DNA from: a bacterium
GTDB lineage: Bacteria; UBA8248
Direction: 5' to 3'
NCBI GenBank assembly: GCA_963692865.2
Contig: OY843592.1
Location: forward strand, 1,120,001 to 1,184,000
Length of the DNA stretch: 64,000 nt
The notes beneath the pieces were generated by a model that was not told the DNA's origin, did no database searches, and worked only from the letters and a program-made list of their open reading frames with translations. This document shows, in pieces, positions 6,188-63,159 of the stretch. A program made the position numbers and the translations under genes. Numbering within the stretch: position 1 is the first letter of the stretch; every line of letters begins with the position of its first letter.

Positions 6188-6258
6188 GAGAGTTATCGCC
6201 TCCCCCTCACGGGCCGGGCGTGGACAGGCTGTTCGGCGTGCGCCATATCACAGGCCGC

Positions 6259-10078: not shown

Positions 10079-10313
10079 CGCCTTGGCGTCATGGTCGGGT
10101 GTGGCGGTGGGTTCGTCATTTCTGGCCCCCGGCGCTATCGTCAAACCGGGTTTTCTTCGGGTGATGGGGAGAGGCGCGCCAGGGTCCGATCTCATCTCCT
10201 TAAATGAAACCCGGGAAACATCCTCTCTGAAACGTCTCTCCACTCGCAGTTTCACTTTCCATTACTGCTATTCGAAGAATACTATGAATGGATTCTGTTG
10301 CGCGAGGGATTTT

Positions 10314-11024
<711 letters not shown>

Positions 11025-11025
11025 G

Positions 11026-32045: not shown

Positions 32046-33251
32046 TCACCACCGCTTGGGATGATCATCGGGAATGGGGCCGCTCAAGGCGCCGCGGCCC
32101 GATTTCTGCCTGATGTAGACGGTCTTGTCGTGATCGTCCGGGATTTCTCCGTTCAGCGCTTTTTTCAGCCAATCCACGGCCCAGGGGTTCAGGTCCAGGT
32201 TGCCGAGCCCCTGCATTCCCCACACCCTGTGGAACTCGTTTTCCAGCACCCATAACTCCTTAGGCGCCGTGATCTCCTCGAAGAAACGAAAAGCGTCTTC
32301 CAGGTGGCTCAGCGGGTCGAACTCCCCGGTGGCCAGCAGCGTCGGGCAGGATATTTTCTCCCCGCAGCCATTTAGCGTCATCTTCGAAGCCATCTCGTCG
32401 AAGGCCTCTTCGTCCGCGTATCCGGCCATGTACATGAAGATTTGCTTGAAACGCGGCGAGGCTTCGCCGAAGATCACGTGTTTGTCCGAAAAGGTGGCGC
32501 TGCCTCCCGCGCAGGCCTTGATCCGCTCGTCTATCGCAGCGGCGAGCGGCGCCCAGTAAGAGCCCATGCTGATGCCGAAGACGCCGATTTTATCCGCGTC
32601 GATTTCCTCGCGGGTTACCAGATAATCGACGACCGCGGAAACGGCGCGCTCGTAGTTATTTTCGGTCACGCGAATTTTGCGCATGTTGGAGATGCCTTGT
32701 CCGGGGCCGTCGATGGCGCAGGCGTGCAAGCCGCGCCGGATCATGTCGTTCTGCAGGATGTAGGGGTAAAATTCCTTCGTCTGGTCCATGCCCGGAATGT
32801 AGATGATGCACGGGGCTTTTCTTCTATCCGGCAGGAGATGGAGGATGACTTGAATCTCCTGCCCCTCGAAGGGGACTTCGACCCGCTCCATCGGGTAGTC
32901 GGCCAGGGCCATCGCGCGGTCGTAGCAGCGGATCAACCCGGCGTGAAGTTTGATTTTCTGCGGGTGGTCGTCCTGGAAGATCACGTGTTGTCCCTTGCGG
33001 TATGATTCCGACGCCTGGATGTAGAGTTCGAGCGCCGTTTCCTTCAGGCCGGCCTCTTCCGCCGCCCGGGCGATTTCTTCTTTGTGTTCCGCGTCCTCGC
33101 CCTGGAGTTTGCTGATCATCTTGTAGTTCTTGACGCCCTTTGGAAGTTCGAACTTGTCGTCTTCGAAGTTCTGGACCATTCCGGCCGTCTTGGCGATGTA
33201 ATCGAGAATCCATTGCTGGTTGTCCCGATGGCGAACGTGTTTCAAAGGCAT
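32046..33251 (-). CDS. Alpha/beta hydrolase (2,6-dihydroxypseudooxynicotine hydrolase-like)
   Basis: PGMDQTKE, DGPGQG, nucleophile elbow GISMG, GEFDPL, and a C-terminal His. Confidence 0.8.
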   Translation of the reverse strand: MPLKHVRHRDNQQWILDYIAKTAGMVQNFEDDKFELPKGVKNYKMISKLQGEDAEHKEEIARAAEEAGLKETALELYIQASESYRKGQHVIFQDDHPQKIKLHAGLIRCYDRAMALADYPMERVEVPFEGQEIQVILHLLPDRRKAPCIIYIPGMDQTKEFYPYILQNDMIRRGLHACAIDGPGQGISNMRKIRVTENNYERAVSAVVDYLVTREEIDADKIGVFGISMGSYWAPLAAAIDERIKACAGGSATFSDKHVIFGEASPRFKQIFMYMAGYADEEAFDEMASKMTLNGCGEKISCPTLLATGEFDPLSHLEDAFRFFEEITAPKELWVLENEFHRVWGMQGLGNLDLNPWAVDWLKKALNGEIPDDHDKTVYIRQKSGRGALSGPIPDDHPKRW

Positions 33252-37563: not shown

Positions 37564-37842
37564 TCAGTGATAGTCGATGAGTTCAACGTCGTAGACGTCC
37601 TCGCCTTCGAAGCGGAAAATGATGCGCCAGTTCGCGTTCACGGTGACCGACCAATAGCCTCTCCATTCGCCCTTTAGTTGGTGGAGCCGATAGTAGGGCA
37701 TTCGCAATGCCTCCGGCGACAAGGCGACATCGAGTTGGGCCAGAATCACCTCCACTCGTTCCCGCAGGTCGGGATGGATGCGGCTGGGGTCGCCGCGTTG
37801 GTATAAGCGTCTGAGGCCGCGATGCCGAAAACTCTTTATCAT
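37564..37842 (-). CDS. higB: HigB-family (RelE-fold) toxin
   Basis: MIKSFRHRGL, YRLHQLKG...GYWSVTVNANWRIIFRF, LIDYH. Lies upstream of higA. Confidence 0.93.
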   Translation of the reverse strand: MIKSFRHRGLRRLYQRGDPSRIHPDLRERVEVILAQLDVALSPEALRMPYYRLHQLKGEWRGYWSVTVNANWRIIFRFEGEDVYDVELIDYH

Positions 37843-37848
37843 CCGTGA

Positions 37849-37877
37849 AATGTAATGTGTCAATCGACGCTTGTCAA
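37849..37877 (-). promoter_or_regulatory. Sigma70-type promoter of higBA (probably leaderless)
   Basis: TTGACA (37877-37872), 17 nt, TACATT (37854-37849), then 6 nt to the higB ATG. Confidence 0.7.
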
Positions 37878-37976
37878 CCGCGTATCCGAGCCGGAGCATC
37901 CTTCGCCCGGTTTCGGGAGGAGCGGCCTGTCTTACAGGTTGGAGGAGAGCACGTAGACTTGGCGCCTGCGCGCCGC

Positions 37977-38008
37977 AAATGCGCACCCCGGTTCATTGAC
38001 GAATCCAT
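37977..38008. repeat. 32-bp direct repeat, copy 2
   Basis: Identical to 37051-37082. Confidence 0.9.
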
Positions 38009-38128
38009 GAGTGTGGGATGATGGCCGGGTTTGATGCGAGTGATTGTTTCCGGCGTAATGAGGCGCATGATGGTTGAGTACGACAATTATCGGATGTCTC
38101 TCAAGCGTCTCGAGGAGCAATACGAAAA

Positions 38129-41100
38129 TTACATCGAACTCGACGAGGCGTTGCCCCGATAAGCCGTCGCCGAGGCGGCTGCCTGAGCAAAAGGCTTGCC
38201 GTTTGATTGTTCTTTCGAGTTATCGCGGGTGTATTTGCACGTGGGATAATTCGAGCATCCTATAAAAGGGCCGTATCGACCGTTTTTTGCCTCTAGCGAG
38301 CCGTCGCATTCGGGGCAGGCCTCGATGAACTTGCCGCACTCTCGGCAGCGGAAGGCTTCGGCCGCCTTGACTGGTAATCCCTTCCCGCAAACCGGACATG
38401 GCTGCTGTGTATGCCTGCAATGAGGGTAGTTCGAACAGCCGTAGAAGATGCCGCCGTTCTGTCTGTTTTGGCGTTGCTCGATCCGTCCCTCGATACATGC
38501 CGGGCAGGGGACGTCGTAATGCGGCATCCAGCCGAAGACGGTGACGTCGTATTCCCCGTCGAACAGCTCCATGTCAAAGGGAGAAGTCGGACCGCCCTCG
38601 GCAAGAAGAAAGACGCGGCGTCTGGCGCGGGTGATGGCGACGTAGAACAGGCGCCGCTCCTCGGCATTCGGGTAATCTTCGGGCACAGAGAGAACCAGAT
38701 CGAGCAACGGGTCGTCTTCGATCTCAGTGGGGAAGCCGTACCTCCCCGAACACAGGTCGAGCAGCACGACGTAATCCGCTTCGCGTCCCTTGGCGCTGTG
38801 CACGGTTTTGTAGGATATCCCGAGTCCGGCATACTTCCTTGCCAGAGCAGATATGTTCTGCGGCTTCGTGTGTTTGTAGCGGCCCAACAACAGCACGCTC
38901 GATTTCCCCTCAAACTTCGCGGCGTCCTCTGTGATCTTGTCTAGCGCCTCATTCAACAGGGGAAGTCCTTGCTCGCCGGAAAGACCTACATGGACGCACG
39001 GCCTGTCCGCCCGGTGCACCGAACCGACCCTCTTGGATATCTGCGCAGGGTTGCGCAGAACGAATTCGGTGGCGACGGAGGCGATGCGGTCGGCGCAGCG
39101 GAAGGTCGTCTCCAGAGGGATGCGTTCACAGTCGCCGAAGTGCTCTATGAACTCCCGCATGATTCCGATGTCCGAGCCTGTGAAGCGGTATATCGCCTGC
39201 CAGTCATCCCCGACGGCGAACAGCCGGGCGCCCGGCGACTTCTCCAAAAGCGCCTTCAACAACCTTGCCCTGCCCTGCGAGATGTCCTGGAACTCATCAA
39301 CCAGGATGTAACCGAAAGGGCTGCTATAGCGGCCGGTTTCCACATGCTCCGTCGCTCTGTCAATCATGTCGTGGAAGTCGATCTCTTCTGATCGGGAGAG
39401 AGTTTCCTCGTAGCGCTCGAAGGCCGGCTGGAACAGGGTGAGGAAGGCTTCGGCCCGCAAGCGGTCCGGATGGTCGGCGGCTTGCCGGGCGACTTCCGGG
39501 AAACTCAGCCATGCGCCCTTGAAGTGCTCGAGAAAGGTCGCCAGCAGACGCATGAACGGATTGATTCGTCCCTGCCGATTCAGCATGGCGAAGACCTCGT
39601 CACGGGGAATGGGGGACAAGGTTACGCCGTAGGCGAGTAGCCTCCCGGCCAGATTTTCGGTCAATCTACCGGCGGCGCGCTCATAGCTGAAGGTCTCGAT
39701 CAAGATAGTGCCGTGTTCGGCGTGGGTCCGGCGTTTCCACGCCATCGATTCGAGATACTCTTTCTGCGGAACGAACGGAGCGGTCTTCCCCTCGATGTCG
39801 ATCCCGAAAGGCTCGATACAGATACCTTCTTGCAGTTTCTCCCTAAGTTTCGTTTTTTCGATCTCGATCCCCAAGTGCTCAATGTAGATACCGGCTTCGG
39901 TCAGATAGAAATCCGGCCTGTACGGCCCCTTCTCCGGCGTAGCCGTGTCGTGCTCATACTTGCGTTCGTACTCGTAGGGCACGCCGTTGAGGTAGAGGAA
40001 GTTGGCGATCTCACATTCCTCGTAGCTGGGAACCTTCTCGCCCTTGAGCGAGCGGATCTCATGCCGCCGAATATAGTCCCGGTACTCACTATAGCTCTCG
40101 AATTCGTGCTCGCTCCTGTAGGGCGCGAACTGAGACTGAAACCATTTCAGCAAATCTTCATAGTATTTTTGTTCCGCAGCCAAGTCAGTGACGATGGTCT
40201 TGAGCAGGTCGAGTAGCGCCTTTTCGTCTTCAGCGGCCTTGGCCAAGCCCGGGCGCCTGCCTTCGGCTTCACCGATGATCTTCATACCCAGGCCGTGGAA
40301 CGTCCTGACGGTCATGTCGGCCGCCGCTTCGTCGCTGAGACGCTTGCGGATCCGTTCTTCCATCTCTTTCTGCGCGTCTTTAGCGAACGCCAGGAGCAGC
40401 AATTCCGAGGGACGCCGGTAGCCTCTATGGAGAAGCCAGCCTGCCTTGGCCACGATCACAGAGGTCTTGCCGCTGCCGGCAGCGGCGACCACCAGATTCC
40501 GGTCATCGTCTACGACGACCGCCCGGCGCTGCTCCTCGGTAAGTGGCCGATCCTCGATCCGGTCGAAGAACTCCCGCAACCGGAACATTTCATTTTCGAC
40601 GAAAGCTTTGTTCGCTTTCTCCCGTATAGGCTCTGGGTCTTTTAGAAAATCCTGTATCCTTTTCAGCAGCCGGATTTCCGGAGCATTCGACAGCACCTTC
40701 GGCCAGCGCTCCGCGAATTGATCCGCCGCCTTCTTTGCGTTGCGCCTCAGTTTACGGAAGACGCTGCGCGCCATGTACTCTGGCGGACTCACAAGTTGTA
40801 GCAGGCGCTCATCTACCGAATGGAGAGCCGCGATCTCTTCCACCAGCGTCCTGCGCCACCAATGGATTCTGTTGGTCTCCAATACTTCGACGAACGCCCA
40901 AGCGTCGTCCTGCGTCAGCCCCGACACGGTTGCGCGCCCTGTCGAATGATGGAAGTGGATGCCGCACCAGCGTAGCCCGATTTCAACTTTGGCCGACACG
41001 ATGTCCTCAATAGGAATTTCCGTGTATCGGGACCCGTGCATTGGTTTCAGGGAGTTCGCGCTCACGAATGCAGCCTTGGCGTCTCGTGGTCGCAAGACCG

Positions 41101-41635
41101 CGAACAGGAAAGAAGCTAGTCCGGTTCGTTCGACCCTGAAACGACCTGCGGCCTCTGAGGCATTCATGGGTCCGGCTTCTCGACCGGAGCGGAGGGTTTG
41201 GTCCCGGTCACGTCCAAAAACGCTTCGACCTCGCTGCGGAAGGCCAGCCCCAGAGGTTTTTCTTGACCCAAGAGATATCACGTAAGTGACGATTCTCGTG
41301 AGAAGGGACGCCCCAATGCCGAATATGGAAGTCAGAAACGCCGTTTTCAGACCGGCGAGAAGCGGCGGAACGCTGCTTTCTATATCATTGGCGTCAAAGT
41401 CTTTCAGGCCGAGAGCGATACCGATGAACGTTCCGAGAATTCCGAGAACGGTCGTCGCCGATTGCGAAAATCTGAGGGCGTTTCTTTTCCAGAAAGCGAA
41501 TACGAGGCAGATTGCGAAACATGCGAGTATCACCACGCAAAAGACTTGCGTTAGCCGTTCGGGATCGCTTGCGGGAGAAACGACGGGTTGAAAAAGGGCG
41601 TATAGAGACGAAAAAACAGGGCGCAGATAGTCCAC
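38129..41635 (-). CDS. UvrD/helicase IV (HelD-like) SF1 helicase with an N-terminal ZorA/MotA-like TM segment, an inserted PD-(D/E)xK-like nuclease and C-terminal topoisomerase C4 zinc ribbons
   Basis: Helicase motifs AAAGSGKT, TFHGLG, LVDEFQD, VGDDWQAIYRF, TVHSAKG.EAD, EERRLFYVAITRAR. Insert YRPDFYL...YIEH. Two CP.C...GCSNYP.C ribbons. Confidence 0.88.
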   Translation of the reverse strand: MDYLRPVFSSLYALFQPVVSPASDPERLTQVFCVVILACFAICLVFAFWKRNALRFSQSATTVLGILGTFIGIALGLKDFDANDIESSVPPLLAGLKTAFLTSIFGIGASLLTRIVTYVISLGSRKTSGAGLPQRGRSVFGRDRDQTLRSGREAGPMNASEAAGRFRVERTGLASFLFAVLRPRDAKAAFVSANSLKPMHGSRYTEIPIEDIVSAKVEIGLRWCGIHFHHSTGRATVSGLTQDDAWAFVEVLETNRIHWWRRTLVEEIAALHSVDERLLQLVSPPEYMARSVFRKLRRNAKKAADQFAERWPKVLSNAPEIRLLKRIQDFLKDPEPIREKANKAFVENEMFRLREFFDRIEDRPLTEEQRRAVVVDDDRNLVVAAAGSGKTSVIVAKAGWLLHRGYRRPSELLLLAFAKDAQKEMEERIRKRLSDEAAADMTVRTFHGLGMKIIGEAEGRRPGLAKAAEDEKALLDLLKTIVTDLAAEQKYYEDLLKWFQSQFAPYRSEHEFESYSEYRDYIRRHEIRSLKGEKVPSYEECEIANFLYLNGVPYEYERKYEHDTATPEKGPYRPDFYLTEAGIYIEHLGIEIEKTKLREKLQEGICIEPFGIDIEGKTAPFVPQKEYLESMAWKRRTHAEHGTILIETFSYERAAGRLTENLAGRLLAYGVTLSPIPRDEVFAMLNRQGRINPFMRLLATFLEHFKGAWLSFPEVARQAADHPDRLRAEAFLTLFQPAFERYEETLSRSEEIDFHDMIDRATEHVETGRYSSPFGYILVDEFQDISQGRARLLKALLEKSPGARLFAVGDDWQAIYRFTGSDIGIMREFIEHFGDCERIPLETTFRCADRIASVATEFVLRNPAQISKRVGSVHRADRPCVHVGLSGEQGLPLLNEALDKITEDAAKFEGKSSVLLLGRYKHTKPQNISALARKYAGLGISYKTVHSAKGREADYVVLLDLCSGRYGFPTEIEDDPLLDLVLSVPEDYPNAEERRLFYVAITRARRRVFLLAEGGPTSPFDMELFDGEYDVTVFGWMPHYDVPCPACIEGRIEQRQNRQNGGIFYGCSNYPHCRHTQQPCPVCGKGLPVKAAEAFRCRECGKFIEACPECDGSLEAKNGRYGPFIGCSNYPTCKYTRDNSKEQSNGKPFAQAAASATAYRGNASSSSM

Positions 41636-41749
41636 GGGGGTTGGGTCCTCAGTGGTTCCTCGGTTTTCAAGACAACCGCTCTATGCTAGCACCCGCGCCG
41701 GGGGTTTGTCGATTTTTTCCGGTTCTCGTTTTTCACGCCCATGCGGTTA

Positions 41750-42056
41750 GGGGTTGTTGAAAAAGTTCCTCGATGCGGGAAAACCACCGTCATTCCGGCG
41801 AAAGCCGGAATCCATTTTATGATTTTTGCTTTCGTTTTCGCATTTGATTCCGACTCGCGGGTGGGCGCGCCGCGCACGAATCCGGAACGGATGAGGTGGA
41901 TATATATGGGGGCGTCCGTATCTTCCCCGGCCGGGAGCGAGGACGTCCGGACAAAAGGCCAAAGACAAAGGTGAAAATGAATCCCGGCTGAAGGCCGGAA
42001 TGACGAGCAAAGGCGAAGGTCAATACCAAGCAAAGCGAGGGTTTTTCAACACCCCC
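41750..42056. mobile_element. MITE-like TIR cassette carrying a GTCATTCCGGCGAAAGCCGGAATCC-type REP pair
   Basis: Ends GGGGTTGTTGAAAAAG / GTTTTTCAACACCCCC. Flanks GGTTA/GGATA (near-TSD). The left end is a near reverse complement of ~48596-48660. Confidence 0.7.
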
Positions 42057-42327
42057 GGATATGTCGTGTTCGTGGCGGGGGAGGGAGGTGGGGTGCAGGA
42101 TTGCTCCACCAGGACGGTGTGTTGCTCCGTCGGCATAGCAAGAAGCCGCGACCGTATTTTCTCATCAAAATTCAGGGGAATGCTATATTAAAGGCGCATC
42201 GTCTCTAAAAGACCAATTCTTTTGGGCTCAAGACTCCAAATTAAGCCGATGCCGCAATTTGGCGGTTATAAGCTGCGCGAATCGCTTTTTCGAGTTCTTT
42301 CTCGAGACGTTCCATGGAGCCGAAAAT

Positions 42328-43320
42328 CTAAAAAAGCGCGCCTTGCGCGTTCGCAGCGGCGGCGATTGCCGTATCCGGGCCGATGTCGGGCAGGTCGCTC
42401 TCGAAAGGGTGTCCGTTTTGCCATCCGGTCTGCCCCGTGGAGCGAAATCGTTCAAGACGCCGAATCGTAATTTCCGCATAGACCGGGTCGACGTCCATGG
42501 TGAAACACTTTCGGTCGAGAATTTCACTCGCGAGCAGGGTTGTTCCCGAGTGCGCGAAAAAATCGACCACCAGATCATCGGGCGATGAACTGGCCCGAAC
42601 AATTCTGTCGATACATTTGATGGGCTTTTGGGCGTAACACCCGGAGACGTTCTCCTGCATCCGATAAAATATCTGTTGAATATCGACCCAGACGTTACCC
42701 GCCCTGATTGTATCGGACCGGCTTCTCTCCAGGTTTTCCGTTCTCTTGCCGTTCACTTTCTTGTAATATCCGCGCAGGATTTTGGGAATGTCCGTATATT
42801 CTGCATCGACCCAAAAATCAGGGTTTCCTTTCGTGTAATAGAGCAACTCCTGCCGAACCGCCATCCAGTTCTTTTGCGTGCCGTATCCCCGTTGGTTTCT
42901 CATCGTGATCATGCTTCTTGAGCGAAAAGGTTGTTCTCGCATCATGAGCGCGAAATCGGGCAATGGTTGGAAACCGTTGTTCTGGTCGGCTCCGAGCCAG
43001 ACGTAAAGCGATGAATCCGGGGCCATGGAATAATGTGAGTGAGACACCCATTTTCGGCACCATTCGATGAATTCCGTTACTTCCTTTTGCTCGAACGCGG
43101 CGAGATTGTAAGGCGGATCATGAATCGCCAGTTTCGCCCGCTCTCCGTCCATGATGCTCCGGGTGTCTTCGCCGCTGGAGGCGTCGAGACACCCGACTCG
43201 ATGGCCTCGCGCGTCGTCGATCCATATCTCTCCCGGCCGAAGGCGGCAATACGGCAGTAACTTGTTTCGCAGTTCAGGCGATGCGTCCAGTCTCGGGAGA
43301 GGGTTGTTTTTCATGGTCAC
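42328..43320 (-). CDS. Site-specific DNA methyltransferase (N6-A/N4-C, beta-type motif order)
   Basis: DPPY precedes QKP and the SAM-binding motif VVDFFAHSGTT. No cognate endonuclease visible. Confidence 0.87.
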   Translation of the reverse strand: MTMKNNPLPRLDASPELRNKLLPYCRLRPGEIWIDDARGHRVGCLDASSGEDTRSIMDGERAKLAIHDPPYNLAAFEQKEVTEFIEWCRKWVSHSHYSMAPDSSLYVWLGADQNNGFQPLPDFALMMREQPFRSRSMITMRNQRGYGTQKNWMAVRQELLYYTKGNPDFWVDAEYTDIPKILRGYYKKVNGKRTENLERSRSDTIRAGNVWVDIQQIFYRMQENVSGCYAQKPIKCIDRIVRASSSPDDLVVDFFAHSGTTLLASEILDRKCFTMDVDPVYAEITIRRLERFRSTGQTGWQNGHPFESDLPDIGPDTAIAAAANAQGALF

Positions 43321-43499
43321 GCCTTCAAATCCTTGTGCTGAAGCCTTCGTCCGGCCATTGTATAAGCCGAGGCCTGCATCTGTTCTTTGGCGTCCGTCGG
43401 GCGGAGATTGCGGTCGGTTCGAACACGCCGACCCCGGCTCTGCTTGCTTTCGCTTTTATTATGCTGATGAGGGTTGGTTTGTCAAGCCCCCGCCTCGCC

Positions 43500-44597
43500 T
43501 CACGAAGCGGCGGACTCCCCCTCCGAGTCGGCGTAGAGCCGGAAGTAGGCGAGGGCGGCGTAGGCCTTGGCCTCGACGGCGTCGCCCGTGAGCGACAGCT
43601 TGAAGTGGTTGATTCCCTTGTAGAGGATGGACATGCCCTTTTCCTCGAAAAGCCGCTCGACTCCCGGAAAGGCGCGCAGGCCGTCGCCCTTCTCCGGCAG
43701 GCACCATCCCATCTCTTCGAGGTAGTCCACGACGGGTCGCCAGGCGTTGCGCCCCGAGGTCAGCCAGTAGTCGAGGTTCGAGGGTTTCCTCGGCCTGTAC
43801 ATCTCGAGGCCCAGGCGCGGCCCCGGGCCGTTCGCGCCCACGTCCAGCGCCAGCCGGAAGACCGGCGTCACGTCGCGCATCTCCTCGAGAACGTCCATCG
43901 CCTTGTCGATGGAGCCGTTCCACTTGAGCCGCTTCAGGAACGCCGGGACGTTGCGCAGTTTCACCCCGTCCACGATGAGGCGGATGAGGCGCGGCTCGCG
44001 CTCCGGCACGGCGCCGATCTGATCCACCACGCCGGTGCGGGGCAGGGCGGCGCACACGCGCTCCACGGCGCGTCGCTCCTCCTCGTTCTCCTCCCAGCCC
44101 GCGGCGCTCGCCATGGCGGCGGCCAGGCGGTCGGGGGTTCGCAGGCCCGCGGCGTCTTCGGCCAGTTCGGATTGAGGCCGCAGCGCCAGGAACACGCCCG
44201 GAGACGGGCGGGCGTCCGGGGGAACCTCCGCGATGTCGTATTCGAGCATCGACGCCCTGAACCAGCCGGCGAGGGAGGGTTCGGAGGCGCAGCCCGCGTC
44301 GTTCATGCGGGCGTAGGCCCGGCCGAGGGCCGCCGCCGCGGAATCCGGCTCCGCGGCCTCGCCCAGGCGGACGTAATACTCCATGGAGGGACGCCCCGGC
44401 GCGACCGAGACGAAATAATCGGCGGCGGGCGCGGGTTCTCCCAGCCGGAACTCGAAAGCCGCGTAATTCAGGGTCAGCCAACTCGGGAGTTCGCCGACGC
44501 GCTCCAGCAGGCGGTCCCACCACGGGCCGTCGAGCAGGGAGGGTGGAACGAAGCGGCGCAACCTGGGAAAGACATCCCCAAAATTCTCAGACATCAT
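43500..44597 (-). CDS. Putative RiPP maturase, probably an ABBA-fold aromatic (Trp) prenyltransferase-like protein
   Basis: ~365 aa from MMSENF. Regularly spaced strand motifs FEFRL..ADY, MLEYD, PGVF, QIG, IRLIV, LALDV, LGLE, NHFKL, AKAY. Directly downstream of the NHLP precursor. The ORF is well supported; the function is inferred. Confidence 0.55.
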   Translation of the reverse strand: MMSENFGDVFPRLRRFVPPSLLDGPWWDRLLERVGELPSWLTLNYAAFEFRLGEPAPAADYFVSVAPGRPSMEYYVRLGEAAEPDSAAAALGRAYARMNDAGCASEPSLAGWFRASMLEYDIAEVPPDARPSPGVFLALRPQSELAEDAAGLRTPDRLAAAMASAAGWEENEEERRAVERVCAALPRTGVVDQIGAVPEREPRLIRLIVDGVKLRNVPAFLKRLKWNGSIDKAMDVLEEMRDVTPVFRLALDVGANGPGPRLGLEMYRPRKPSNLDYWLTSGRNAWRPVVDYLEEMGWCLPEKGDGLRAFPGVERLFEEKGMSILYKGINHFKLSLTGDAVEAKAYAALAYFRLYADSEGESAAS

Positions 44598-44793
44598 CGA
44601 ACCCTGTTTGCGATTGGGCGCATATGCCGGGACGAACGCGGCGGCGAGCGGCGCTCTGCTCCCCGGCCCCCTGTAGCGAAGCGGGCCGCGGAGGCGTTCG
44701 AACACGCGATACATCCCCCTCGAACCAACCCCTTCCCGGGGTTTTCCGCAGATAGAGCCCCGCCAGACTGTCATGCTCTTTTGATATAACGTA

Positions 44794-45081
44794 TCAGATG
44801 TTTTGGTTCAAGTTGTTCCAGGCGTTGACGAAGTCCAAAGGCGCCTGCGTTCCGGCCACGATGTCGTTCAAATCGGACTCGCTCAACTCGGCCGGGGGCA
44901 ATACGAGGTTGATGCTCATGACGTTGTCCGTGTGCACGCCGATCTTGAACCCCTCGGGAATGGTGATCCCCAGTTCCCGCTCGATGGTGGTCTTGGGGTT
45001 GGTCAGCAATTCGGTGCGGAACGCCGGGTTCTCGCTCGCCTTTTTGATGATCTCCTCGCGCATTTCCTGTACGGTTTTCAC
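44794..45081 (-). CDS. NHLP (nitrile hydratase-like leader peptide) RiPP precursor, 95 aa
   Basis: GTG start with GGAG/GAGG upstream. Leader IIKKASENPAFRTELLTNPKTTIERELGITIPEG.KI.VH.D....NLVLPP.ELSESDLNDIVAG. Core TQAPLDFVNAWNNLNQNI. Confidence 0.88.
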   Translation of the reverse strand: MKTVQEMREEIIKKASENPAFRTELLTNPKTTIERELGITIPEGFKIGVHTDNVMSINLVLPPAELSESDLNDIVAGTQAPLDFVNAWNNLNQNI

Positions 45082-45237
45082 TGCCTCGGGTTCTCCGGGT
45101 GATATGTAGGGCCCGCCGAAAAGCGGGCAACGCTCCCCTGCTCGCCCCGGCCGCCGGCGCAACGGGCGCCGCCTCCGGGAGGGATTGGCTGCTTCGTCAT
45201 CCCTCCGCTCGGGCGAGAGAAGAGGACATGCTCAAAA

Positions 45238-45265
45238 AGTATATGCGCCGTGATTGCCGCGTCAA
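45238..45265 (-). promoter_or_regulatory. Candidate sigma70 promoter for the NHLP precursor unit
   Basis: TTGACG, 16 nt, TATACT, ~155 nt upstream of the precursor start. Confidence 0.5.
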
Positions 45266-45487
45266 CAAAATTATGGCCTTTCGCCGAACGAAAGTGCGAA
45301 AAATTCGATTTTTCGCACCAAACGCCCCGACCCCTGGAATTCCTGCGAACCGCCGGCGTCCTTCGCGCGCGCTTTTTTTCTTGAGGGGCCGGGAGTAGTG
45401 TGAGAAACTTGCCCTTTCGCCTCGGGGGACTCGAGTGCTCGTTCCCGTTTCACGAAAAGCCCGCTTAACGGCCAGGGAGGATGCGAC

Positions 45488-47260
45488 ATGATGGACAGGG
45501 GTTCCCGGCGGCACGCGAGCGCCGACGTACGCTACGAAGCCGACGAAAAACCGCCGCCCCTGCTCGCGTTCGGCCTCGGCCTGCAACTCGCCGTCCTCTG
45601 CGTGAGCGGCATCGTGTTCACACCCTTGATCGTGGTTCGGGCCGCCGGTGGAACTGAGGATTATCTCTCGTGGGCCGTGTTCGCCGCTTTGGCGATCTGC
45701 GGCGCGACCACGATGCTCCAGGCGGTCCGGATCGGCCGCTTCGGCGCGGGCTACGTGCTCATCATGGGCACGTCGGGCGCCTTCATCGCGGTCTGCATCG
45801 CGGCGCTCGCAAAGGGAGGGCCGGGGATGCTCGCCACGCTGGTCCTCGCCTCCTCGCTTTTCCAGTTCGCGCTCTCCGAACGCCTCTCGCTGTTCAGGCG
45901 GGTGCTGACGCCGACCGTCGCAGGCACCGTCATCATGCTGATAGCGGTGACGGTGATGCCCATCGTCTTCAAGATGCTCGGGGACGTGCCGAAGGGCGCT
46001 CCCCCGCTCGCCGCCCCGCTGAGCGCCGTGACGGCGGTGGTCGTCATCGTCGGCATCGCGCTCAAGGCGACGGGGGCGCTGCGCCTGTGGGCGCCCGTCG
46101 TCGGCGTGGTCGCGGGTTCGCTCGTAGGCCTCTATTACGGCATCTACGACACGGCCCGCGTCGCCGGGGCTTCGTGGATAGGCCTTCCCCACGGCGCGTG
46201 GCCGGGCCTGGATTTGAGCTTCGGGCCCGTTTTCTGGACGCTTTTGCCGGGGTTCATTTTCGTGACCCTGATCGGCGCCATCGAAACCGTGGGCGACGGC
46301 GCCGCCATCCAGCGCGTGTCCTGGCGGCGGCCCCGGGCGGTGGATTTCAAGGCGGTGCAGGGCGCGGTGGCCGCCGACGGGGTGGGCAACCTGCTCTCGG
46401 GCCTTCTGGCGACGGTGCCGAACACGACCTATTCGACGAGCGTGTCCGTCACCGAACTCACCGGCGTCGGCGCGCGCAGCGTCGGCGTCGCCGCCGGGTC
46501 GGCGTTCCTCGCCCTGGCGTTTCTCCCCAAGCTGGTCGCCGTGGTGCTGGCGATACCGGCCCCGGTCGCCTCGGCCTACATCACCGTGCTGCTGGCGATG
46601 CTCTTCGTTGTCGGCATGCGGATGGTCGTCCAGGACGGAATCGACTACCGCAAGGGGCTGGTGGCGGGCGTCGGTTTCTGGGCGGGCGTCGGCTTTCAGA
46701 ACGGCGTCATATATCCCGAGTACTTCTCCACGTTCGCGGGCGGCCTCTTGAGCAACGGCATGACGGCCGGCGGTCTCGTCGCCATGATCATGACGCTGTT
46801 CGTCGAACTCACCGAACCGCGCCGCAGACGGCTCGAGGCGGCGTTCGACCTATCGGCCCTGCCGAAGATCCGGGAGTTTCTCGGCGAGTTCGCCTCCGCC
46901 GCCGGCTGGGACGAGGTGATGGCGCATCGCCTCGACGCCGCGGGCGAGGAGACGCTGCTGACGCTTCTGCGCCGCGATGAAGACGGCGAGGACGACGAAC
47001 GGCGGCGGCTGCTCGTGGTGGCGCACAAGGAAGACGGCGGCGCGGTGATCGAGTTCGTCGCCGCCGGCGGCGAGGAGAACCTCCAGGACCGGCTCACGCT
47101 GCTCGGCGAACAAACCGCCGGCGCGCCGATCGAGCGGGAAGTATCGCTCCGGCTGCTGCGCCACCTCGCCACCTCGGTCCGCCACCAGCAGTACCGCGAC
47201 ACGGATATCGTGACCGTCCGCGTGGATGTCTCGGGCGCGCCGCGCGGCGAGGGGAGTTGA
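45488..47260 (+). CDS. NCS2-family permease with a C-terminal RsbW-like (HATPase_c_2) degenerate domain
   Basis: YEADEKPP, GLQL, MGTSGAF, IETVGD, ADGVGN, PNTTYS. Soluble tail from ~46820. Confidence 0.85.
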   Translation: MMDRGSRRHASADVRYEADEKPPPLLAFGLGLQLAVLCVSGIVFTPLIVVRAAGGTEDYLSWAVFAALAICGATTMLQAVRIGRFGAGYVLIMGTSGAFIAVCIAALAKGGPGMLATLVLASSLFQFALSERLSLFRRVLTPTVAGTVIMLIAVTVMPIVFKMLGDVPKGAPPLAAPLSAVTAVVVIVGIALKATGALRLWAPVVGVVAGSLVGLYYGIYDTARVAGASWIGLPHGAWPGLDLSFGPVFWTLLPGFIFVTLIGAIETVGDGAAIQRVSWRRPRAVDFKAVQGAVAADGVGNLLSGLLATVPNTTYSTSVSVTELTGVGARSVGVAAGSAFLALAFLPKLVAVVLAIPAPVASAYITVLLAMLFVVGMRMVVQDGIDYRKGLVAGVGFWAGVGFQNGVIYPEYFSTFAGGLLSNGMTAGGLVAMIMTLFVELTEPRRRRLEAAFDLSALPKIREFLGEFASAAGWDEVMAHRLDAAGEETLLTLLRRDEDGEDDERRRLLVVAHKEDGGAVIEFVAAGGEENLQDRLTLLGEQTAGAPIEREVSLRLLRHLATSVRHQQYRDTDIVTVRVDVSGAPRGEGS

Positions 47261-57408: not shown

Positions 57409-57615
57409 TGGCCTCGGCGCCCACCCGGGCCCGATCTCCCCGCATCCCCCTCGCAGCCCACTTCAAAAAACTTGCCTCCACGCGCTCTCTGGCGTAATCT
57501 GAACGTATTCGAGTTTCTTGCGACGCTATCACGCTCGCTTTTCCGCTTCCGGAAAGGAAGCGGCGTTTCCCGCTCCCGCCCCGATGAAGCGGGATTCGGC
57601 TCAGGAGGCCCCACG

Positions 57616-60600
57616 ATGAGATTTCCGAGACGAATGGTTTTGACCGCACTCATCCTTTCGCTGGCCGGCGTCCTGTCCGGCGCGCTCGCCGCCTTCGCGC
57701 AGGATTGCCCGCGCCCGTCGGGCGTCGCCCCGAACTCGCTCGAAACCCCGGACGTTACGGCCGCGCAGGCGGCGGCGAACCCCACGGCCGCGAACCTCAA
57801 GGCCTTCGCCCTGGCGGGGAAAGACCTGATAGCGAGTTCCAGGACGTTTCCTGCGAATTCATACGTTTTGTGTCTTTTCAAGAATCATTCGAACTGGAAT
57901 TCCGGCTCCATCTACGTCACGGGCCTGACTCCGGACGGGAGACTGCTCTTTCACCCGAACAATGCGAATCTCGGGGGCAGGCGGCTCAACCCCGCCCTTT
58001 GGGGACAGATCGCCGGCGCGGCCGGTTTGACTCCAAGGGGTTTCAGCAATCCGGACGGCGGCGCTTTGCCGGGAGGCGGGCATGCGGTCGGTTATATAGA
58101 CGGTCTTTCCAACTTCCCGCACATCGTGGTGGCCGGCCTCGATATCCAGGAATCCAGCCTAGTGAAGGAAGTCCTCGACCCGGGCGCCATCCCGGCCGTA
58201 ACGGCCAGGGACGTGGTGGACCGCGCGACGCTCGAGGCCTTCGTGAACGGGGCGAGGACTTTCATGGGAAACTTCTTCCGTGACCGCGGCAACACCTTTT
58301 CAAAACTGAGGAGCGTCTTCAGGACCGAGCATTGGAGGCACGGCGAAATCTACCTGTTCCTGATGGATGAAAGCGGCTACACGTTCTTTCACGGGGGGGA
58401 TCCGGGGCGATACGAACTCGCCACCCCCACGGACACCTTGCGGGACGTCGTCACCGGCAAGCTCATTCTGCCGCAGATCATCGAGGCGGCGAAGAAACCC
58501 GGCGGCGGCTTCGTGCAGTACTATTTCGACAACCCCGACGACGACACGGACAGCGCCGACGTGCCGAAGGTGACCTTCGCCCGCAGTCTCAGGAATGAAG
58601 TTACTGGAAATTCATTCATCATCGGCGCGGGGATCTACAGGGACCCGGGCGCGGTGTCCGAGGCCGTCTGCCCGCGCCCGGCGGGCGTGGCGGTGAATAC
58701 GCTGGAGACCCCGGACGTTACGGCCGCGCAGGCGGCGGCGAACCCCACGGCCGCGAACCTCAAGGCCTTCGCCCTGGCGGGGAAACGGTATCTGGCGAGC
58801 GTTCGTCCGGGGCCGGAATTGGTGTACAGCGGGTGCCTCCTCAGGAATGAGGGCCCCTGGAAGGCAGGCTCCAACTACGTCGTCACCATGACCACCGACG
58901 GCAGGGTGCTCTTGCACTCGGGCAATATGGCCTTGAGCGGCAAGCCGCTCAAGGCCGCCGTCTGGAGGGCGATAGCCGCCGCGACCGGCGCGGCCGCCCT
59001 GGGAACGACGGGCGCCTTCGGGAAACCGGACGGAGGCGCCCTGCCGGCGGAGGTCGGCGGCGGCTACGCCGTCGGCTTCAAGCGCACCCAGGGAGGCGCC
59101 ACGTTCATCCTGGTCGCCGGCCTCGACATCGGGAAATCCGACCTCGCGCCGGAAACCGTCGACCCCGGCAATCCGCCGATCCGGGCCGATCAGGTGGTGG
59201 ACCGCGCGACGCTCAAGACCTTCGTGAAAGGAGCGAAGGACTACGTCCTCCAGCTCTACAGGACCGAAGGCCGCAGCGCCTTTTCGAAGGCGAAGAGCGT
59301 CCTCCGGGACCCGAAAGGCCCCTGGCGGAGCGGTCCCGTCTATCTCTTCATCATGGAGCCCACCGGCTACACGATCTTCCACGGGGCGTTTCCGGACAAG
59401 TACGAACTCCAGACCCCGACGGCCACCCTCAGGGATCAGGTCACCGGCGATCTCATCCTGCCGCAGATCATCAATGCGGCGAAGAAACCCGACGGCGGCT
59501 TCGTGAAGTATTATTTCGACAACCCCGACGACGACACCGACAGCGCCACGGTCCCCAAGGTGACCTATGCGGTCCGGCACGTCATTCGTGCTACGCGGGC
59601 GGACGGCAGCACGTTCGAATACCCGCTCATCTTCGGCGCGGGGATCTACGGCGATCCGGACACGGTGTCCGAGGACGCCTGCCCGCGCCCGCCGGGCGTC
59701 GCGAAGAACCCGCTGGAGACCCCAAGCGTCACGGCCGCCCAGGCGGCGGAGAGCGCGGAGAACCTGAAGGCCTTCGCCCTGGCGGGGAAACGGTATCTGG
59801 CGAGCGTCCGCGTGGGGCCGGAATTGACGTACAGCAGGTGCCTCTTCAGGCATGAGGGGCCCTGGAAGACCGGCGCCACCTACGCCGCCACCATTTCCCT
59901 CGACGGCAGGGTGATCTTTCACTCGGGCAATATGGCCTTGAGCGGCAGGCCGCTCAAGCCCGCCGTCCGGGGGGCGATAGCCGCCGCGACCGGCGCGGCC
60001 GCCCTGGGAACGACGGGCGCCTTCGGGAAGCCGGACGGCGGCGCCCTGCCCGGCGGCGGCTACGCCGTCGGCTTCAAGCGCACCGTCGGAGGCGGCACGG
60101 GAATCCTGGTCGCCGGCCTGGACATCAGGGAATCACAACACCTCGCGCCGGAAACCGTCGACCCCGGCGATCCGCCGATCCGGGCCGACCAGGTGGTGGA
60201 CCGCGCGACGCTCAAGACCTTCGTGAACGGAGCGAAGGACTACGTCCTCCAGCTCTACAGGACCGAAGGCCACAGCGCCTTCACGAAGGCGAAGAGCGTC
60301 CTCCGGGACCCGAACGGACCTTGGAGACACGGCCCCGTCTACCTCTTCATAATGGAGCCCACCGGCTACACGCTCTTCCACGGGGCGTTCCCGGACAAGT
60401 ACGAGCTCCAGGCCCCCACGAATACCCTGCGGGACGCCGTCACCGGCAAGCTCATCCTGCCGCAGATCATCCAGGCGGCGACCGCCAACCCCGACGGCGG
60501 CTTCGTGAAGTATTATTTCGACAACCCGGACGACGACACGGACAACGCCACGGTCCCCAAGGTGACCTATGCGGTCCGGCACGTCATTCGGGGGCAGAGG

Positions 60601-63159
60601 CAGGACGGCAGCGCGATCGAATACCCGATCATCTTCGGCGCGGGGATCTACGGGGACCCGGGCGGCGTGTCCGAGGACGCCTGCCCGCGTCCGCCGGGCG
60701 TCGCCGTGAACCCGCTGGAGACCCCAAGCGTTACGGCCGCGCAGGCGGCGGGCGGCGGAGACCTGGGCGCGTTCGCGCGGGCGGCGCGGGACTACTTCAA
60801 CACCATCGTGACGCCGGAGGAGTTGGGCTACGCCGGGTGCATCACCCGGAACGAGGGCCCCTGGAAGGCCGGCGACACCTACCTTTCCGCCGTGACGCTC
60901 AACGGCAGGGTGCTCTTCAACGCGAAGGACATGTCGACGGGGGGCCGACCGCTCAAGCCCGAGGTTCATGCGGCCATCCTTTCGGCGGCGCTGGGGGTCC
61001 CTCTTGACCCGGCCAACCCGGCCGCCTTCCAGAGCGCCGTGGCCGCCGCCCTGGGCCAAGTGGCCGCAACGGCCGCCACGGGGAAAGCCGTTTTCCCGAA
61101 GCCCGGCGGCGGCCCCGTGCCGCTGCTCGGCGGCTACGCCGTGGGGTACGGCGCCAACATTCCCTACATTTTCCTGGCCGGCCTGGACCTCAAGGAATCC
61201 CACTTCGGGGAGGAAACCCTGCCGCCTGCGGACCCGGAGGTCAGCGCCGACGAGGTGGTGGACCGCCGGACGCTCAAGAAATTCGTGAACGGGGCGACGG
61301 ACTACTTCCTCGGAATCATGCGGTCGAAGCCCACCGAAGCCCTCGGCATCGCGAGGAGCGTCATGAGGCGGCCGCCCTGGAAGCACGGCTCCGTCTACCT
61401 GTTCGTGATGGACCCGAACGGCTACACGCACCTTCACGGCGGGTTCCCGGACAGGTTCGAGTTCCAGACCCCGACGGCCACCCTCAGGGACCAGGTCACC
61501 GGCGATCTCATCCTGCCGCAGATCATCGAGGCGGCGCAGAGGCCCGGCGGCGGCTTCGTGCAGTATTATTTCGACAACCCCGCCGACGACAGCGACAGCG
61601 CCGACGTGCCGAAGGTGACCTATGCGCACCTGATCACCGTGACGGTCAACGTCCCCGGCTTCGGACCGATAACCAGTTCGTCCATCATCGGCGCGGGCAT
61701 CTACGGGGATCCGCTCTCGAAGGAGAGCCTTGCGGCGGCGCGCGGCTGGCTGGCGCGCTTCGGCCGGGCGGCGGCGAGCCAGGCGGTGGAGATGATCGCC
61801 GGCCGCATGAACGCCCCCGCCCCGAGCGGGGCGAAGATGACGCTCGGCGGGCGGACGGTGAACCTCGATGAGGGCTCGGCCCGCTTCATGGCGGAGAACG
61901 ACCCGGAGGTCATGGACCGGGATGGTCTCGAGCGCTGGGTCGCGTCGAGGAGGCTCGCGATGGGGCGCGACGCCCCGGAGACCTACCGCGAGACGACGGT
62001 GAGCGAACTCCTCTCGGGCGGTTCGTTCCACCTGGCCTCGGCGAAGGACGCCGGGGAGGCGGCCGGCCGCTGGTCGATCTGGGGCCGCGGGTCGCGGACG
62101 AGCTTCGAGGGCGGAGAGGCCGCTACCCAAGGCGACGTGACGACGGCCATGCTGGGGATGGACTACGAGAAGGACAGCGTCCTCATGGGCCTCGCGCTCT
62201 CGCGCGCCACGGGCGAGGGCGGCTTCGAGAACGGGGGCAGCGGCGAGATGGAGGCGACGCTCACGAGCGTGCACCCCTACCTGCGCTACCGGGCGAACGA
62301 GCGGCTCTCGATGTGGGGCATCCTGGGAATGGGCCAGGGAGAGATGACGCTGGAAGTGGAGGAGAAAGACGTCGACAAGAAGGTCGAAGCCGAGACCGAC
62401 ATCGAGATGCGCATGGCGGCGTTCGGGCTTCGGGGAGAATTAACGAAGACGGGCGGGTTCGACCTGGCGGTGAAGTCCGACGTCCTGGTGGCGCAGACGG
62501 ACGCGGACGCGGCCGACGGGGTCGAGGCGATATCGGCGGAGACGACGCGGCTCCGGGTGATGCTCGAAGCCTCGCGCGAGGTGGCGATGAAGAACGGCGG
62601 CGCGTTCACGCCTTCGGTGGAGGCGGGCCTTCGCCATGACGGAGGCGACGCGGACGAGGGGGTCGGCGTGGAGGTGGGCGGCGGCCTGCGCTTCACGAAC
62701 CCGGCCTCGGGCCTCACGCTGGAGCTCAAGGCGCGCGGGCTCCTCGCGCATGAAGAGGAAGACGTGACCGACTGGGGCGTGGGCGGCATGATCCGCTTCG
62801 CTCCGGGGAAGGCGGGCCGTGGGCTTGCGCTCACCGTGCGGCCCTCGGTGGGCGAGACGGCGGGCGGCGCCGAGCGGCTGTGGGGCATCGAGGACGCCTC
62901 GCGCCTGGCGAAAGGGGAAGTCGGGGACCTCGACCCCCGCGTGCGCGCGGAGGTGGGCTACGGGCTGGACGCCTGGGGCGGCCTGCTGACGCCCTACGCG
63001 GGCCTTTCGGTGTCCGAGGACGGCGGCGGCGCCTACCGCCTGGGCGGTCGTTTCAGGATGGGCGAACGCCTCAGCATGAGCGTCGAGGGCGACGTGCGCG
63101 AGCGCGAGAACGACGACCCCGTCCACGGCGTGGCGCTGCGCGGCTCCCTGCGATGGTAG
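57616..63159 (+). CDS. Autotransporter with a passenger of four tandem double-Cache units
   Basis: RBS AGGAGG and signal peptide. Four ~320-340-aa repeats begin CPRP at 57706, 58669, 59680 and 60682. Linker helix WLARFGR, then a beta-barrel (WSIWGRG, GMDY, HPY, EAGLRHDGGD, EVGYG) ending in W. Confidence 0.85.
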   Translation: MRFPRRMVLTALILSLAGVLSGALAAFAQDCPRPSGVAPNSLETPDVTAAQAAANPTAANLKAFALAGKDLIASSRTFPANSYVLCLFKNHSNWNSGSIYVTGLTPDGRLLFHPNNANLGGRRLNPALWGQIAGAAGLTPRGFSNPDGGALPGGGHAVGYIDGLSNFPHIVVAGLDIQESSLVKEVLDPGAIPAVTARDVVDRATLEAFVNGARTFMGNFFRDRGNTFSKLRSVFRTEHWRHGEIYLFLMDESGYTFFHGGDPGRYELATPTDTLRDVVTGKLILPQIIEAAKKPGGGFVQYYFDNPDDDTDSADVPKVTFARSLRNEVTGNSFIIGAGIYRDPGAVSEAVCPRPAGVAVNTLETPDVTAAQAAANPTAANLKAFALAGKRYLASVRPGPELVYSGCLLRNEGPWKAGSNYVVTMTTDGRVLLHSGNMALSGKPLKAAVWRAIAAATGAAALGTTGAFGKPDGGALPAEVGGGYAVGFKRTQGGATFILVAGLDIGKSDLAPETVDPGNPPIRADQVVDRATLKTFVKGAKDYVLQLYRTEGRSAFSKAKSVLRDPKGPWRSGPVYLFIMEPTGYTIFHGAFPDKYELQTPTATLRDQVTGDLILPQIINAAKKPDGGFVKYYFDNPDDDTDSATVPKVTYAVRHVIRATRADGSTFEYPLIFGAGIYGDPDTVSEDACPRPPGVAKNPLETPSVTAAQAAESAENLKAFALAGKRYLASVRVGPELTYSRCLFRHEGPWKTGATYAATISLDGRVIFHSGNMALSGRPLKPAVRGAIAAATGAAALGTTGAFGKPDGGALPGGGYAVGFKRTVGGGTGILVAGLDIRESQHLAPETVDPGDPPIRADQVVDRATLKTFVNGAKDYVLQLYRTEGHSAFTKAKSVLRDPNGPWRHGPVYLFIMEPTGYTLFHGAFPDKYELQAPTNTLRDAVTGKLILPQIIQAATANPDGGFVKYYFDNPDDDTDNATVPKVTYAVRHVIRGQRQDGSAIEYPIIFGAGIYGDPGGVSEDACPRPPGVAVNPLETPSVTAAQAAGGGDLGAFARAARDYFNTIVTPEELGYAGCITRNEGPWKAGDTYLSAVTLNGRVLFNAKDMSTGGRPLKPEVHAAILSAALGVPLDPANPAAFQSAVAAALGQVAATAATGKAVFPKPGGGPVPLLGGYAVGYGANIPYIFLAGLDLKESHFGEETLPPADPEVSADEVVDRRTLKKFVNGATDYFLGIMRSKPTEALGIARSVMRRPPWKHGSVYLFVMDPNGYTHLHGGFPDRFEFQTPTATLRDQVTGDLILPQIIEAAQRPGGGFVQYYFDNPADDSDSADVPKVTYAHLITVTVNVPGFGPITSSSIIGAGIYGDPLSKESLAAARGWLARFGRAAASQAVEMIAGRMNAPAPSGAKMTLGGRTVNLDEGSARFMAENDPEVMDRDGLERWVASRRLAMGRDAPETYRETTVSELLSGGSFHLASAKDAGEAAGRWSIWGRGSRTSFEGGEAATQGDVTTAMLGMDYEKDSVLMGLALSRATGEGGFENGGSGEMEATLTSVHPYLRYRANERLSMWGILGMGQGEMTLEVEEKDVDKKVEAETDIEMRMAAFGLRGELTKTGGFDLAVKSDVLVAQTDADAADGVEAISAETTRLRVMLEASREVAMKNGGAFTPSVEAGLRHDGGDADEGVGVEVGGGLRFTNPASGLTLELKARGLLAHEEEDVTDWGVGGMIRFAPGKAGRGLALTVRPSVGETAGGAERLWGIEDASRLAKGEVGDLDPRVRAEVGYGLDAWGGLLTPYAGLSVSEDGGGAYRLGGRFRMGERLSMSVEGDVRERENDDPVHGVALRGSLRW

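Follow-up and report, generated by a model that had tools for sequence, protein, structure and literature searches.

A two-gene cassette of an NHLP precursor and a predicted ABBA-fold enzyme as a candidate for leader-guided tryptophan prenylation in a sponge-associated bacterium

A stretch of 64,000 nucleotides (nt) from a bacterium of the lineage UBA8248 (assembly GCA_963692865.2, contig OY843592.1, positions 1,120,001 to 1,184,000 of the forward strand; hereafter the window) carries a compact cassette of two genes, one encoding a 95-amino acid (aa) precursor peptide of the NHLP type and the other a 365-aa enzyme with a predicted prenyltransferase (PT) barrel, or ABBA, fold. We favor, as a reasonably probable account, a route in which this enzyme prenylates the single tryptophan (Trp) of the precursor's core under the guidance of the leader, after which the peptide is cleaved and exported in trans. 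The sponge-associated bacterium would then probably make a lipid-tagged Trp peptide by a route first described between 2023 and 2025, and the cassette represents a variant of a recently established kind, the leader-dependent Trp prenylation of peptides that are made on the ribosome and modified after translation (RiPPs), not a new kind. The original prediction, made from the DNA letters, had proposed a putative prenyltransferase here, and this proposal was supported as far as computation goes, with prenyl transfer presumed from fold and context.

The precursor was examined with the HMM (hidden Markov model) TIGR03793, which matched residues 4–77 of the 95 with 62.1 bits (E 3.4e-17), above the curated cut-off of 50.9, while Pfam NHase_alpha gave a weak match (16.3 bits vs 27.2). 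The GTG start codon is backed by the relative at locus L013, in which the same codon is ATG. The leader ends in ...ELSESDLNDIVAG (also written ...PPAELSESDLNDIVAG) and holds an L(X)4L motif, LSESDL, followed at the leader end by an AG-type putative cleavage motif (...LSESDLNDIVAG, then TQAP...); a role of L(X)4L in binding of the enzyme and of the C39 peptidase has been described (PMC12715784 and PMC10858898). The 18-aa core, TQAPLDFVNAWNNLNQNI, contains one Thr, one Trp and five Asn with neither Cys nor Ser, has a computed monoisotopic mass of 2071.012 Da when unmodified, and carries its Trp at core residue 11, which is precursor residue 88. The length and NHLP type of the precursor, the composition of the core and the positions given for both in the original prediction were all confirmed, and the leader model that it had proposed as a check scored in its favor.

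For the neighboring gene, a protein of about 365 aa without an obvious common family had been noted, and its strand motifs had been likened to barrels of the ABBA/DMATS type; both points were borne out. The protein, which contains ...INHFKLSL... and ...EAKAYAAL..., matched no Pfam or NCBIfam family at E<=0.1, and no match to Trp_DMAT (PF11991), PTase_Orf2 (PF11468) or DUF5838 (PF19156) was obtained at this threshold; it is therefore not filed in any of these three sequence families. In contrast to this silence at the sequence level, an AlphaFold2 model built from a 51-sequence alignment was predicted with a pLDDT (predicted local distance difference test) of 90.8 and a pTM (predicted template modeling score) of 0.89, and showed five successive alpha-alpha-beta-beta repeats, which in the model form the 10-stranded antiparallel barrel that defines the ABBA superfamily. 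A Foldseek search with the model returned 81 PDB matches at E<=0.001; those listed were ABBA prenyltransferases throughout, including AmbP1, AnaPT, TleC, NphB/Orf2, CloQ, EpzP, IptA and CymD, and the structural neighbors with the highest Z scores were indole prenyltransferases. In the ESM Atlas, clusters of Trp_DMAT, PTase_Orf2 and DUF5838 appeared at 0.88–0.89, behind 19 unnamed clusters, and serve as a lead only.

Residue conservation was examined in 106 family members that are 24–84% identical to the window enzyme. R200 was present in all 106, E49, D121, K333 and Y346 in 105 each, D60 and H331 in 104 each, K344 in 103 and R206 in 97; E119, Y120, W286 and K303 were near-invariant as well. 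R206, K333, K344, Y346, Y120 and H331 lie on predicted strands, and R200 in a loop between the strands 190–196 and 205–210. This conserved set, mostly on predicted strands, looks like the diphosphate-binding and catalytic set of a PT barrel. Taken together, the model suggested that the window enzyme belongs, at the level of fold, to a large unannotated branch of the ABBA/PT-barrel superfamily.

The second line of evidence is the genomic link between this enzyme family and Trp-bearing NHLP precursors. Among 43 loci taken from species-representative genomes, 40 hold, as judged by an HMM built from leaders, an NHLP precursor beside the homologue on the same strand, mostly directly upstream. These loci yielded 120 co-oriented cores of at most 45 aa, with core boundaries set by a simple GG/AG rule; 115 of them contain Trp, 62 end in it, and Trp makes up 8.7% of all core residues. 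Counting each distinct core once gave 82 with Trp out of 87, and among the cores nearest upstream of the enzyme gene the count, by our reading, was 39 of 40. When 28 precursors from different clades were aligned, Trp was the sole conserved core position (W88, at least 90%), cores of other clades being as diverse as AENCEWGHDHHDEYHVPLGGP, NGLISSWARA and FGAFWG. The linkage of homologues to Trp-containing NHLP cores that the original prediction had asked about was therefore observed.

Within the closest relatives, the pair is conserved in 13 genomes with a spacing of 195–206 nt, the same neighbors (a permease and DUF3105) and enzyme identities of 72–87%. Because the same spacing is kept in all 13, the pairing is not a matter of chance, and its conservation suggested that the cassette is under purifying selection. 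The core in these genomes reads [TSA][QG]x[WMPY]xx[FL]x[NS]AWN[SN]L, followed by NQN[SI] except at L013 (...AWNSLS), so that the A-W-N-x-L block is identical in all 13 and N-Q-N comes next in 12.

The surroundings of the pair vary among the more distant loci. HlyD, C39-peptidase ATP-binding cassette (C39-ABC) and ABC export genes lie beside it in three of eight loci scanned with Pfam (L014, L019 and L039), other scanned loci add JmjC or WelO5-like oxygenases, and the layout of L001 is as minimal as that of the window. At L014 (821–10800), HlyD, C39-ABC and ABC genes are accompanied by an NHLP precursor whose core, AENCEWGHDHHDEYHVPLGGP, is rich in His, by the enzyme homologue, a cytidine-deaminase-like gene and a WelO5-like enzyme of the Fe/2-oxoglutarate (2OG) type; similar clusters were seen at L015–L017, L023 and L031. 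Proteobacterial, Binatia and other loci hold arrays of up to 14 hypervariable precursors, nearly all ending in Trp. In L027, L030, L034, L037 and L038 (about 5000–11400 in each), 10–14 NHLP genes with near-identical leaders surround a single enzyme homologue, a layout of one enzyme and many substrates that is reminiscent of the prochlorosins. Some of the array loci also contain JmjC-domain proteins and very large open reading frames (ORFs) without a Pfam match.

From this fold and this context, we infer the following sequence of events. The 365-aa enzyme would bind the 95-aa precursor via its long leader and, with a housekeeping prenyl diphosphate as the donor, would prenylate the indole of the Trp at core residue 11, the candidate donors being dimethylallyl (DMAPP), geranyl (GPP), farnesyl (FPP) and geranylgeranyl (GGPP) diphosphate; two polyprenyl synthase genes in the genome are a possible source of supply. 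The leader would then be cut after ...VAG, and the 18-residue lipopeptide would leave the cell through a C39-peptidase ABC transporter encoded elsewhere. The genome contains one such exporter, the only candidate, about 0.96 Mb from the cassette and within an srp-type cluster (own genome, contig 1, 184001–204000; L050). The genes of that cluster encode an NHLP precursor with the core LCCCW, a 772-aa YcaO protein, a fatty-acid-desaturase-like protein, a second ABC protein, the C39-ABC protein and a flavin Trp halogenase, together with a paralogue of the window enzyme (L050:4349–5467, minus strand, 372 aa, HMM E 1e-117, 33% identical). Over 78 residues, the leader of the window precursor shares 40% identity with the SrpE-like leader encoded in the same genome, and AG stands at the end of each. 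Moreover, all five related complete genomes possess the cassette (with a TAG in one of them) and one or two C39 exporters about 0.4–1.8 Mb distant. The exporter elsewhere in the genome, the likeness of the leaders and the distant exporters of the relatives suggested that cleavage and export in trans are feasible.

The srp-type cluster agrees in layout with the published one, in which SrpE has the core LCCCW, SrpC is a YcaO protein and SrpI a brominase (PMC10858898). The likeness between the two systems lies in their presence in one genome, the paralogous enzymes and the related leaders. In contrast, the srp pathway comprises cyclodehydration, bromination and its own exporter, all of which the window cassette lacks, and the two enzymes are only 33% identical. 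In the srp paper of 2024 (PMC10858898), a search of the main text gave no occurrence of 'prenyl'; given the paralogue, the cryptic srp product may be prenylated as well.

Several observations weigh against Trp prenylation by the window enzyme and bear on the alternatives to it. Five of the 120 cores are without Trp, and plasmid pn1 of Nostoc sp. UHCC 0926 (L052:5037–9546, a region that its record leaves unannotated) encodes two NHLP precursors with cores that contain Tyr and no Trp (ATIGIYGPLQIVKS and AVIGVIGPLQYVKS) and, downstream of these, a family member of 383 aa (HMM E 7.1e-45). Trp is thus not obligatory for the family, which may accept Tyr too. In addition, the Trp of the window's clade is internal, with seven residues after it, as opposed to the terminal Trp of 62 family cores, suggesting that its acceptor position differs from that of the bulk of the family. 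Cyanobactin-type enzymes modify Ser, Thr, Tyr, Arg, His and the termini of peptides, and an ABBA fold says nothing about the acceptor, so that with these Trp-less cores the enzyme could also be a peptide prenyltransferase that acts on Thr1 (O-prenylation), on the new N-terminal amine or on a side-chain amide. We consider this unlikely, since Trp alone recurs in cores that are otherwise unrelated, position 1 of the core changes among T, S and A in the close clade, and the best structural neighbors are enzymes of indole prenylation.

A further group of observations concerns whether a prenyl group is transferred at all. None of 51 family members matched a Pfam prenyltransferase family at E<=10, and the family profile found no match among all PDB sequences at the same threshold, so that the enzyme appears to have no sequence-level link to any characterized prenyltransferase. 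No prenyl diphosphate synthase gene, which might have indicated a linked donor supply, was found in the cassette or in the eight Pfam-scanned loci. Decay also occurs in the family, as the cassette enzyme of a close relative (G004, 726724–727815) has one in-frame TAG and a distant homologue (L043:7968–9065) is split by a frameshift; PatF, an ABBA-fold RiPP protein, has been reported to be inactive. These points would fit a PT-barrel protein that serves as a leader-binding scaffold or chaperone, a PatF-like inactive relic, or an enzyme of some other Trp chemistry, an explanation that we judge to be distinctly improbable. Finally, in three of the 43 loci no NHLP precursor is nearby (at one of them, L035, an exporter-like gene is still present, as judged by eye, and another is L043 with its frameshift), and the closest structural neighbors act on free Trp or small aromatics. 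An enzyme that modifies a small aromatic metabolite in the manner of the classical DMATS and Orf2 enzymes, next to a precursor by accident, is nevertheless very improbable, as the precursor is directly beside the gene in 40 of the 43 loci across many lineages and C39 exporters occur in three of the eight scanned loci. A prediction of the enzyme–precursor complex with custom alignments speaks against it as well. It was graded as 'weak support' for binding of the precursor by the enzyme, with a score of 0.54 (0.54, 0.56 and 0.41 in three runs), compared with 0.01 for the best of three controls, and showed a contact agreement of at least 47% between runs and a partner pLDDT of at least 72. In the calibration, 116 of 157 solved complexes attained the mark, as did 2 of 215 mismatched pairs; the range up to 0.60 held only 18 of the 157 solved complexes plus both passing mismatches. 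The result counts as a weak pass only, which is a further point on the side of doubt.

Leader-guided prenylation of the core Trp remains the account that we prefer, and it can be set beside several known systems. MppC, from the mpp cluster of Moorena producens, is an ABBA-type enzyme that attaches a geranyl group to C5 of one Trp in a lanthipeptide with a Nif11 leader; this leader is a strict requirement, its L(X)4L motif included (PMC12715784). The window enzyme resembles it as a soluble ABBA-type protein encoded beside a long-leader precursor that carries the presumed acceptor Trp, an arrangement found in the window and in the 40 loci with a precursor, and the window leader likewise has an L(X)4L motif. 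The two differ in the leader, which is Nif11 in MppE and NHLP in the window precursor, and in the substrate, as MppC prefers a lanthionine-cyclized core and the mpp cluster has LanM, a halogenase, arginases and a terpene synthase, whereas the window core is linear and is accompanied by no other maturase. The comparison with MppC is one of descriptions, and MppC itself may belong to the same family.

The closest functional analogue is PalQ/PalX of Paenibacillus alvei (PMC10853753), likewise a minimal cluster of an NHLP precursor and one prenyltransferase that acts on a conserved Trp, in which the NHLP domain enhances the reaction. As described there, PalQ has the all-helical isoprenoid-synthase (ComQ-like) fold, is specific for a C-terminal Trp, on which it forms a pyrroloindoline at C3, and comes with a linked histidine kinase. 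In contrast, the window enzyme is predicted to be an ABBA barrel, its Trp is internal and there is no adjacent kinase; the helical fold (IPR008949) was not seen in the alpha/beta barrel model, and no match to polyprenyl_synt or a related Pfam family was obtained. The window enzyme may hence work like PalQ, but the model argues against its being a member of the PalQ/ComQ type. The remark in the original prediction that prenylated proteusins had been reported held insofar as Trp prenylation of an NHLP precursor has been published in this system, and did not extend to the enzyme, which has a different fold.

NctPC is a leader-dependent ABBA-type RiPP Trp prenyltransferase, as summarized in a review (PMC13290415, on Hubrich et al., Chem 2024); by their descriptions there, NctPC and ChrPC are fusions of a prenyltransferase and a cyclase, and NctPC transfers C20, whereas the window enzyme has a single domain. 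The terms 'NHLP' and 'proteusin' are absent from the main text of this review, and within the limited literature covered we found no paper on proteusin or NHLP prenylation that reports an ABBA-type enzyme acting on an NHLP precursor. The cyanobactin F-family (PagF, PatF and DciF) shares the superfold and also acts on ribosomal peptides. The DMATS-type enzymes (FgaPT2, MpnD, CymD and DMATS1) are 6–12% identical to the window enzyme in structural alignments, and their substrates are free Trp or small molecules instead of peptides with a leader; none of the 51 family members matches Pfam Trp_DMAT.

To describe the extent of the family, 1.84 billion representative sequences were searched exhaustively with the HMM, which gave 3,849 clusters (50% identity) at E<=1e-3, with 2,884 left at E<=1e-10 and 758 left at E<=1e-30; ten cluster representatives bear only the name 'hypothetical protein'. 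A word-indexed search found 98 relatives, each named 'hypothetical', and NCBIfam matched none of 20 distant members. A wider word-indexed search from 106 sequences returned 94 proteins, nearly all found previously and with no named cyanobacterial protein among them, and a dedicated search for fused or longer forms found none, which is weak evidence. The 43 loci carry labels of at least nine bacterial lineages, namely Nitrospinota, Gemmatimonadota, Latescibacterota, SAR202/Dehalococcoidia, Alpha- and Gammaproteobacteria, Binatia, Vicinamibacterales and Spirochaetia. When plasmids were searched with tblastn, pPg_03 of Pseudanabaena galeata (L051:8434–10227) was found to encode a protein of 597 aa whose sole annotation is '2OG-Fe(II) oxygenase'. 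It is a fusion in which residues 5–368 are of the PT-barrel family, with an hhalign probability of 99.9% (E 8.7e-33; HMM E 1.4e-57), and residues 471–584 form an oxygenase domain. It lies in a cluster with LanM and a Nif11 precursor that ends ...PPIKW, indicating that the family reaches the type of cluster that is retrieved by MppC-based mining. At the Nostoc locus, a 470-aa protein with a CxxxCxxC motif is encoded in between.

The features of the cassette and its immediate surroundings are listed in Table 1. The start of the enzyme at MMSENFG... is confirmed by homologues of 364–365 aa that begin with MSE(N/S)FGD. A longer reading frame of 424 aa, from an ATG at 44774, was rejected as an artefact, because the homologues begin at MSE... 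and near relatives have indels of 1–2 nt in the additional part; by the same indels, the spacer between the two genes is not coding. Its mean column identity in 10 genomes was 78%, on par with coding sequence. A structured RNA in this spacer, which we also considered, had no covariation support, since the covariation term of RNAalifold was +0.28 and compensatory changes were present in only 5 of 47 pairs. In most relatives, CTCATCG in the spacer could pair with the start region of the enzyme gene (CGATGATG), again without covariation support; the window has CTCGCCG at this place.

A consensus scan of 43300–45500 found two promoter-like sites against 0.2 expected from shuffled sequences. The site upstream of the precursor gene is a candidate promoter of the two-gene unit. 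The other site would mark the downstream boundary of the cassette, with the following methylase gene having its own promoter-like signal. No counterpart of this methylase exists in any of the 43 related loci, and the enzyme gene is directly followed by a helicase gene in L002 and L003, indicating that the methylase is a local insertion and that the cassette consists of two genes. On the same grounds, and given its own promoter-like site, we rejected the idea that the methylase might act on the Asn-rich core by N-methylating Asn/Gln. The DNA from 37564 to 43320, downstream of the cassette, has the appearance of a defence or mobile island.

Table 1. Positions of the cassette, its parts and the adjoining features in the window.
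Feature	Positions	Strand	Remarks
HigB-like toxin	37564-37986		In the island-like stretch
Helicase IV-like protein, 1168 aa	38129-41635		N-terminal MotA/ExbB (ZorA-like) segment, C-terminal Top1-type zinc ribbons
DNA methylase N6/N4 (PF01555)	42328-43320		Directly downstream of the cassette
Promoter-like site TTGACA, 16 nt, CATAAT	43458..43485	minus	Consensus match (11/12), just past the enzyme stop codon
Enzyme gene, presumed maturase	43500-44597	minus	365 aa; predicted ABBA (PT-barrel) fold
Spacer between precursor and enzyme, 196 nt	44598..44793	minus	Conserved, non-coding
Small GC hairpin CCCCGGGAAGGGG	44729-44741	minus	Inside the spacer
NHLP precursor gene	44794-45081 (stop included)	minus	95 aa; GTG start at 45081
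Core TQAPLDFVNAWNNLNQNI, 18 aa	44797-44850 (44794..44850 with stop codon)	minus	
NHLP leader, precursor residues 1-77	44851..45081	minus	Ends ...DIVAG
Promoter-like site TTGACG, 16 nt, TATACT	45238..45265	minus	Consensus match, about 157 nt upstream of the precursor start codon

The claim that the window lacks any further maturase, peptidase or exporter stood in part. A Pfam scan of 42 window ORFs found no LanM, YcaO, radical SAM enzyme or C39 exporter; an M24 peptidase (23828–25045) and an S9/S33-like hydrolase (32046–33251) are present, neither of which is a RiPP-type peptidase. Elsewhere in the window, an ORF of 1895 aa (57472–63159) has Cache sensor domains together with an autotransporter beta-domain at its C-terminus, an unusual pairing. 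In a run labelled as sponge metagenome, one contig spans the whole stretch at about 96% identity; for habitat, runs with small word shares (X7–X23) were disregarded. A metatranscriptome run (X10) contains a 419-nt contig that corresponds to 44719–45136 and, at about 95% identity, includes all of the precursor gene, together with two further short contigs inside the enzyme gene; this is no proof of transcription, and as DNA contigs from that study break there too, no conclusion follows on the ends or levels of transcripts.

If the internal Trp of this linear and otherwise unmodified NHLP core is prenylated by the enzyme, the cassette would be a very compact route to a ribosomal lipopeptide, consisting of one precursor and one enzyme, and both the NHLP leader class and the internal acceptor position would be new for RiPP prenyltransferases of the ABBA type. 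It could also be useful for the genetically encoded lipidation of peptides. The large family of 3,849 clusters, which has no name in Pfam or NCBIfam and is therefore currently missed by genome miners, would gain a functional label. In a wider view, which we offer tentatively as possible but somewhat doubtful, the family would constitute a widespread class of leader-guided, Trp-lipidated linear peptides ('prenyl-proteusins'), with two paralogues sharing one exporter in the present genome and with the sponge-wide srp product being a prenylated and brominated thiazoline peptide. Sponge symbionts would be particularly rich in such peptides, whose genes would extend from hypervariable arrays of 10–14 precursors with a terminal Trp to the minimal cassette with an internal Trp. 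The paralogue in the srp-type cluster would amount to a testable prediction on cryptic srp products that are conserved across sponge microbiomes. The main value of the cassette is that it represents, in a minimal and tractable form, a large family that lacks annotation, and that it points to the paralogue in the srp-type cluster.

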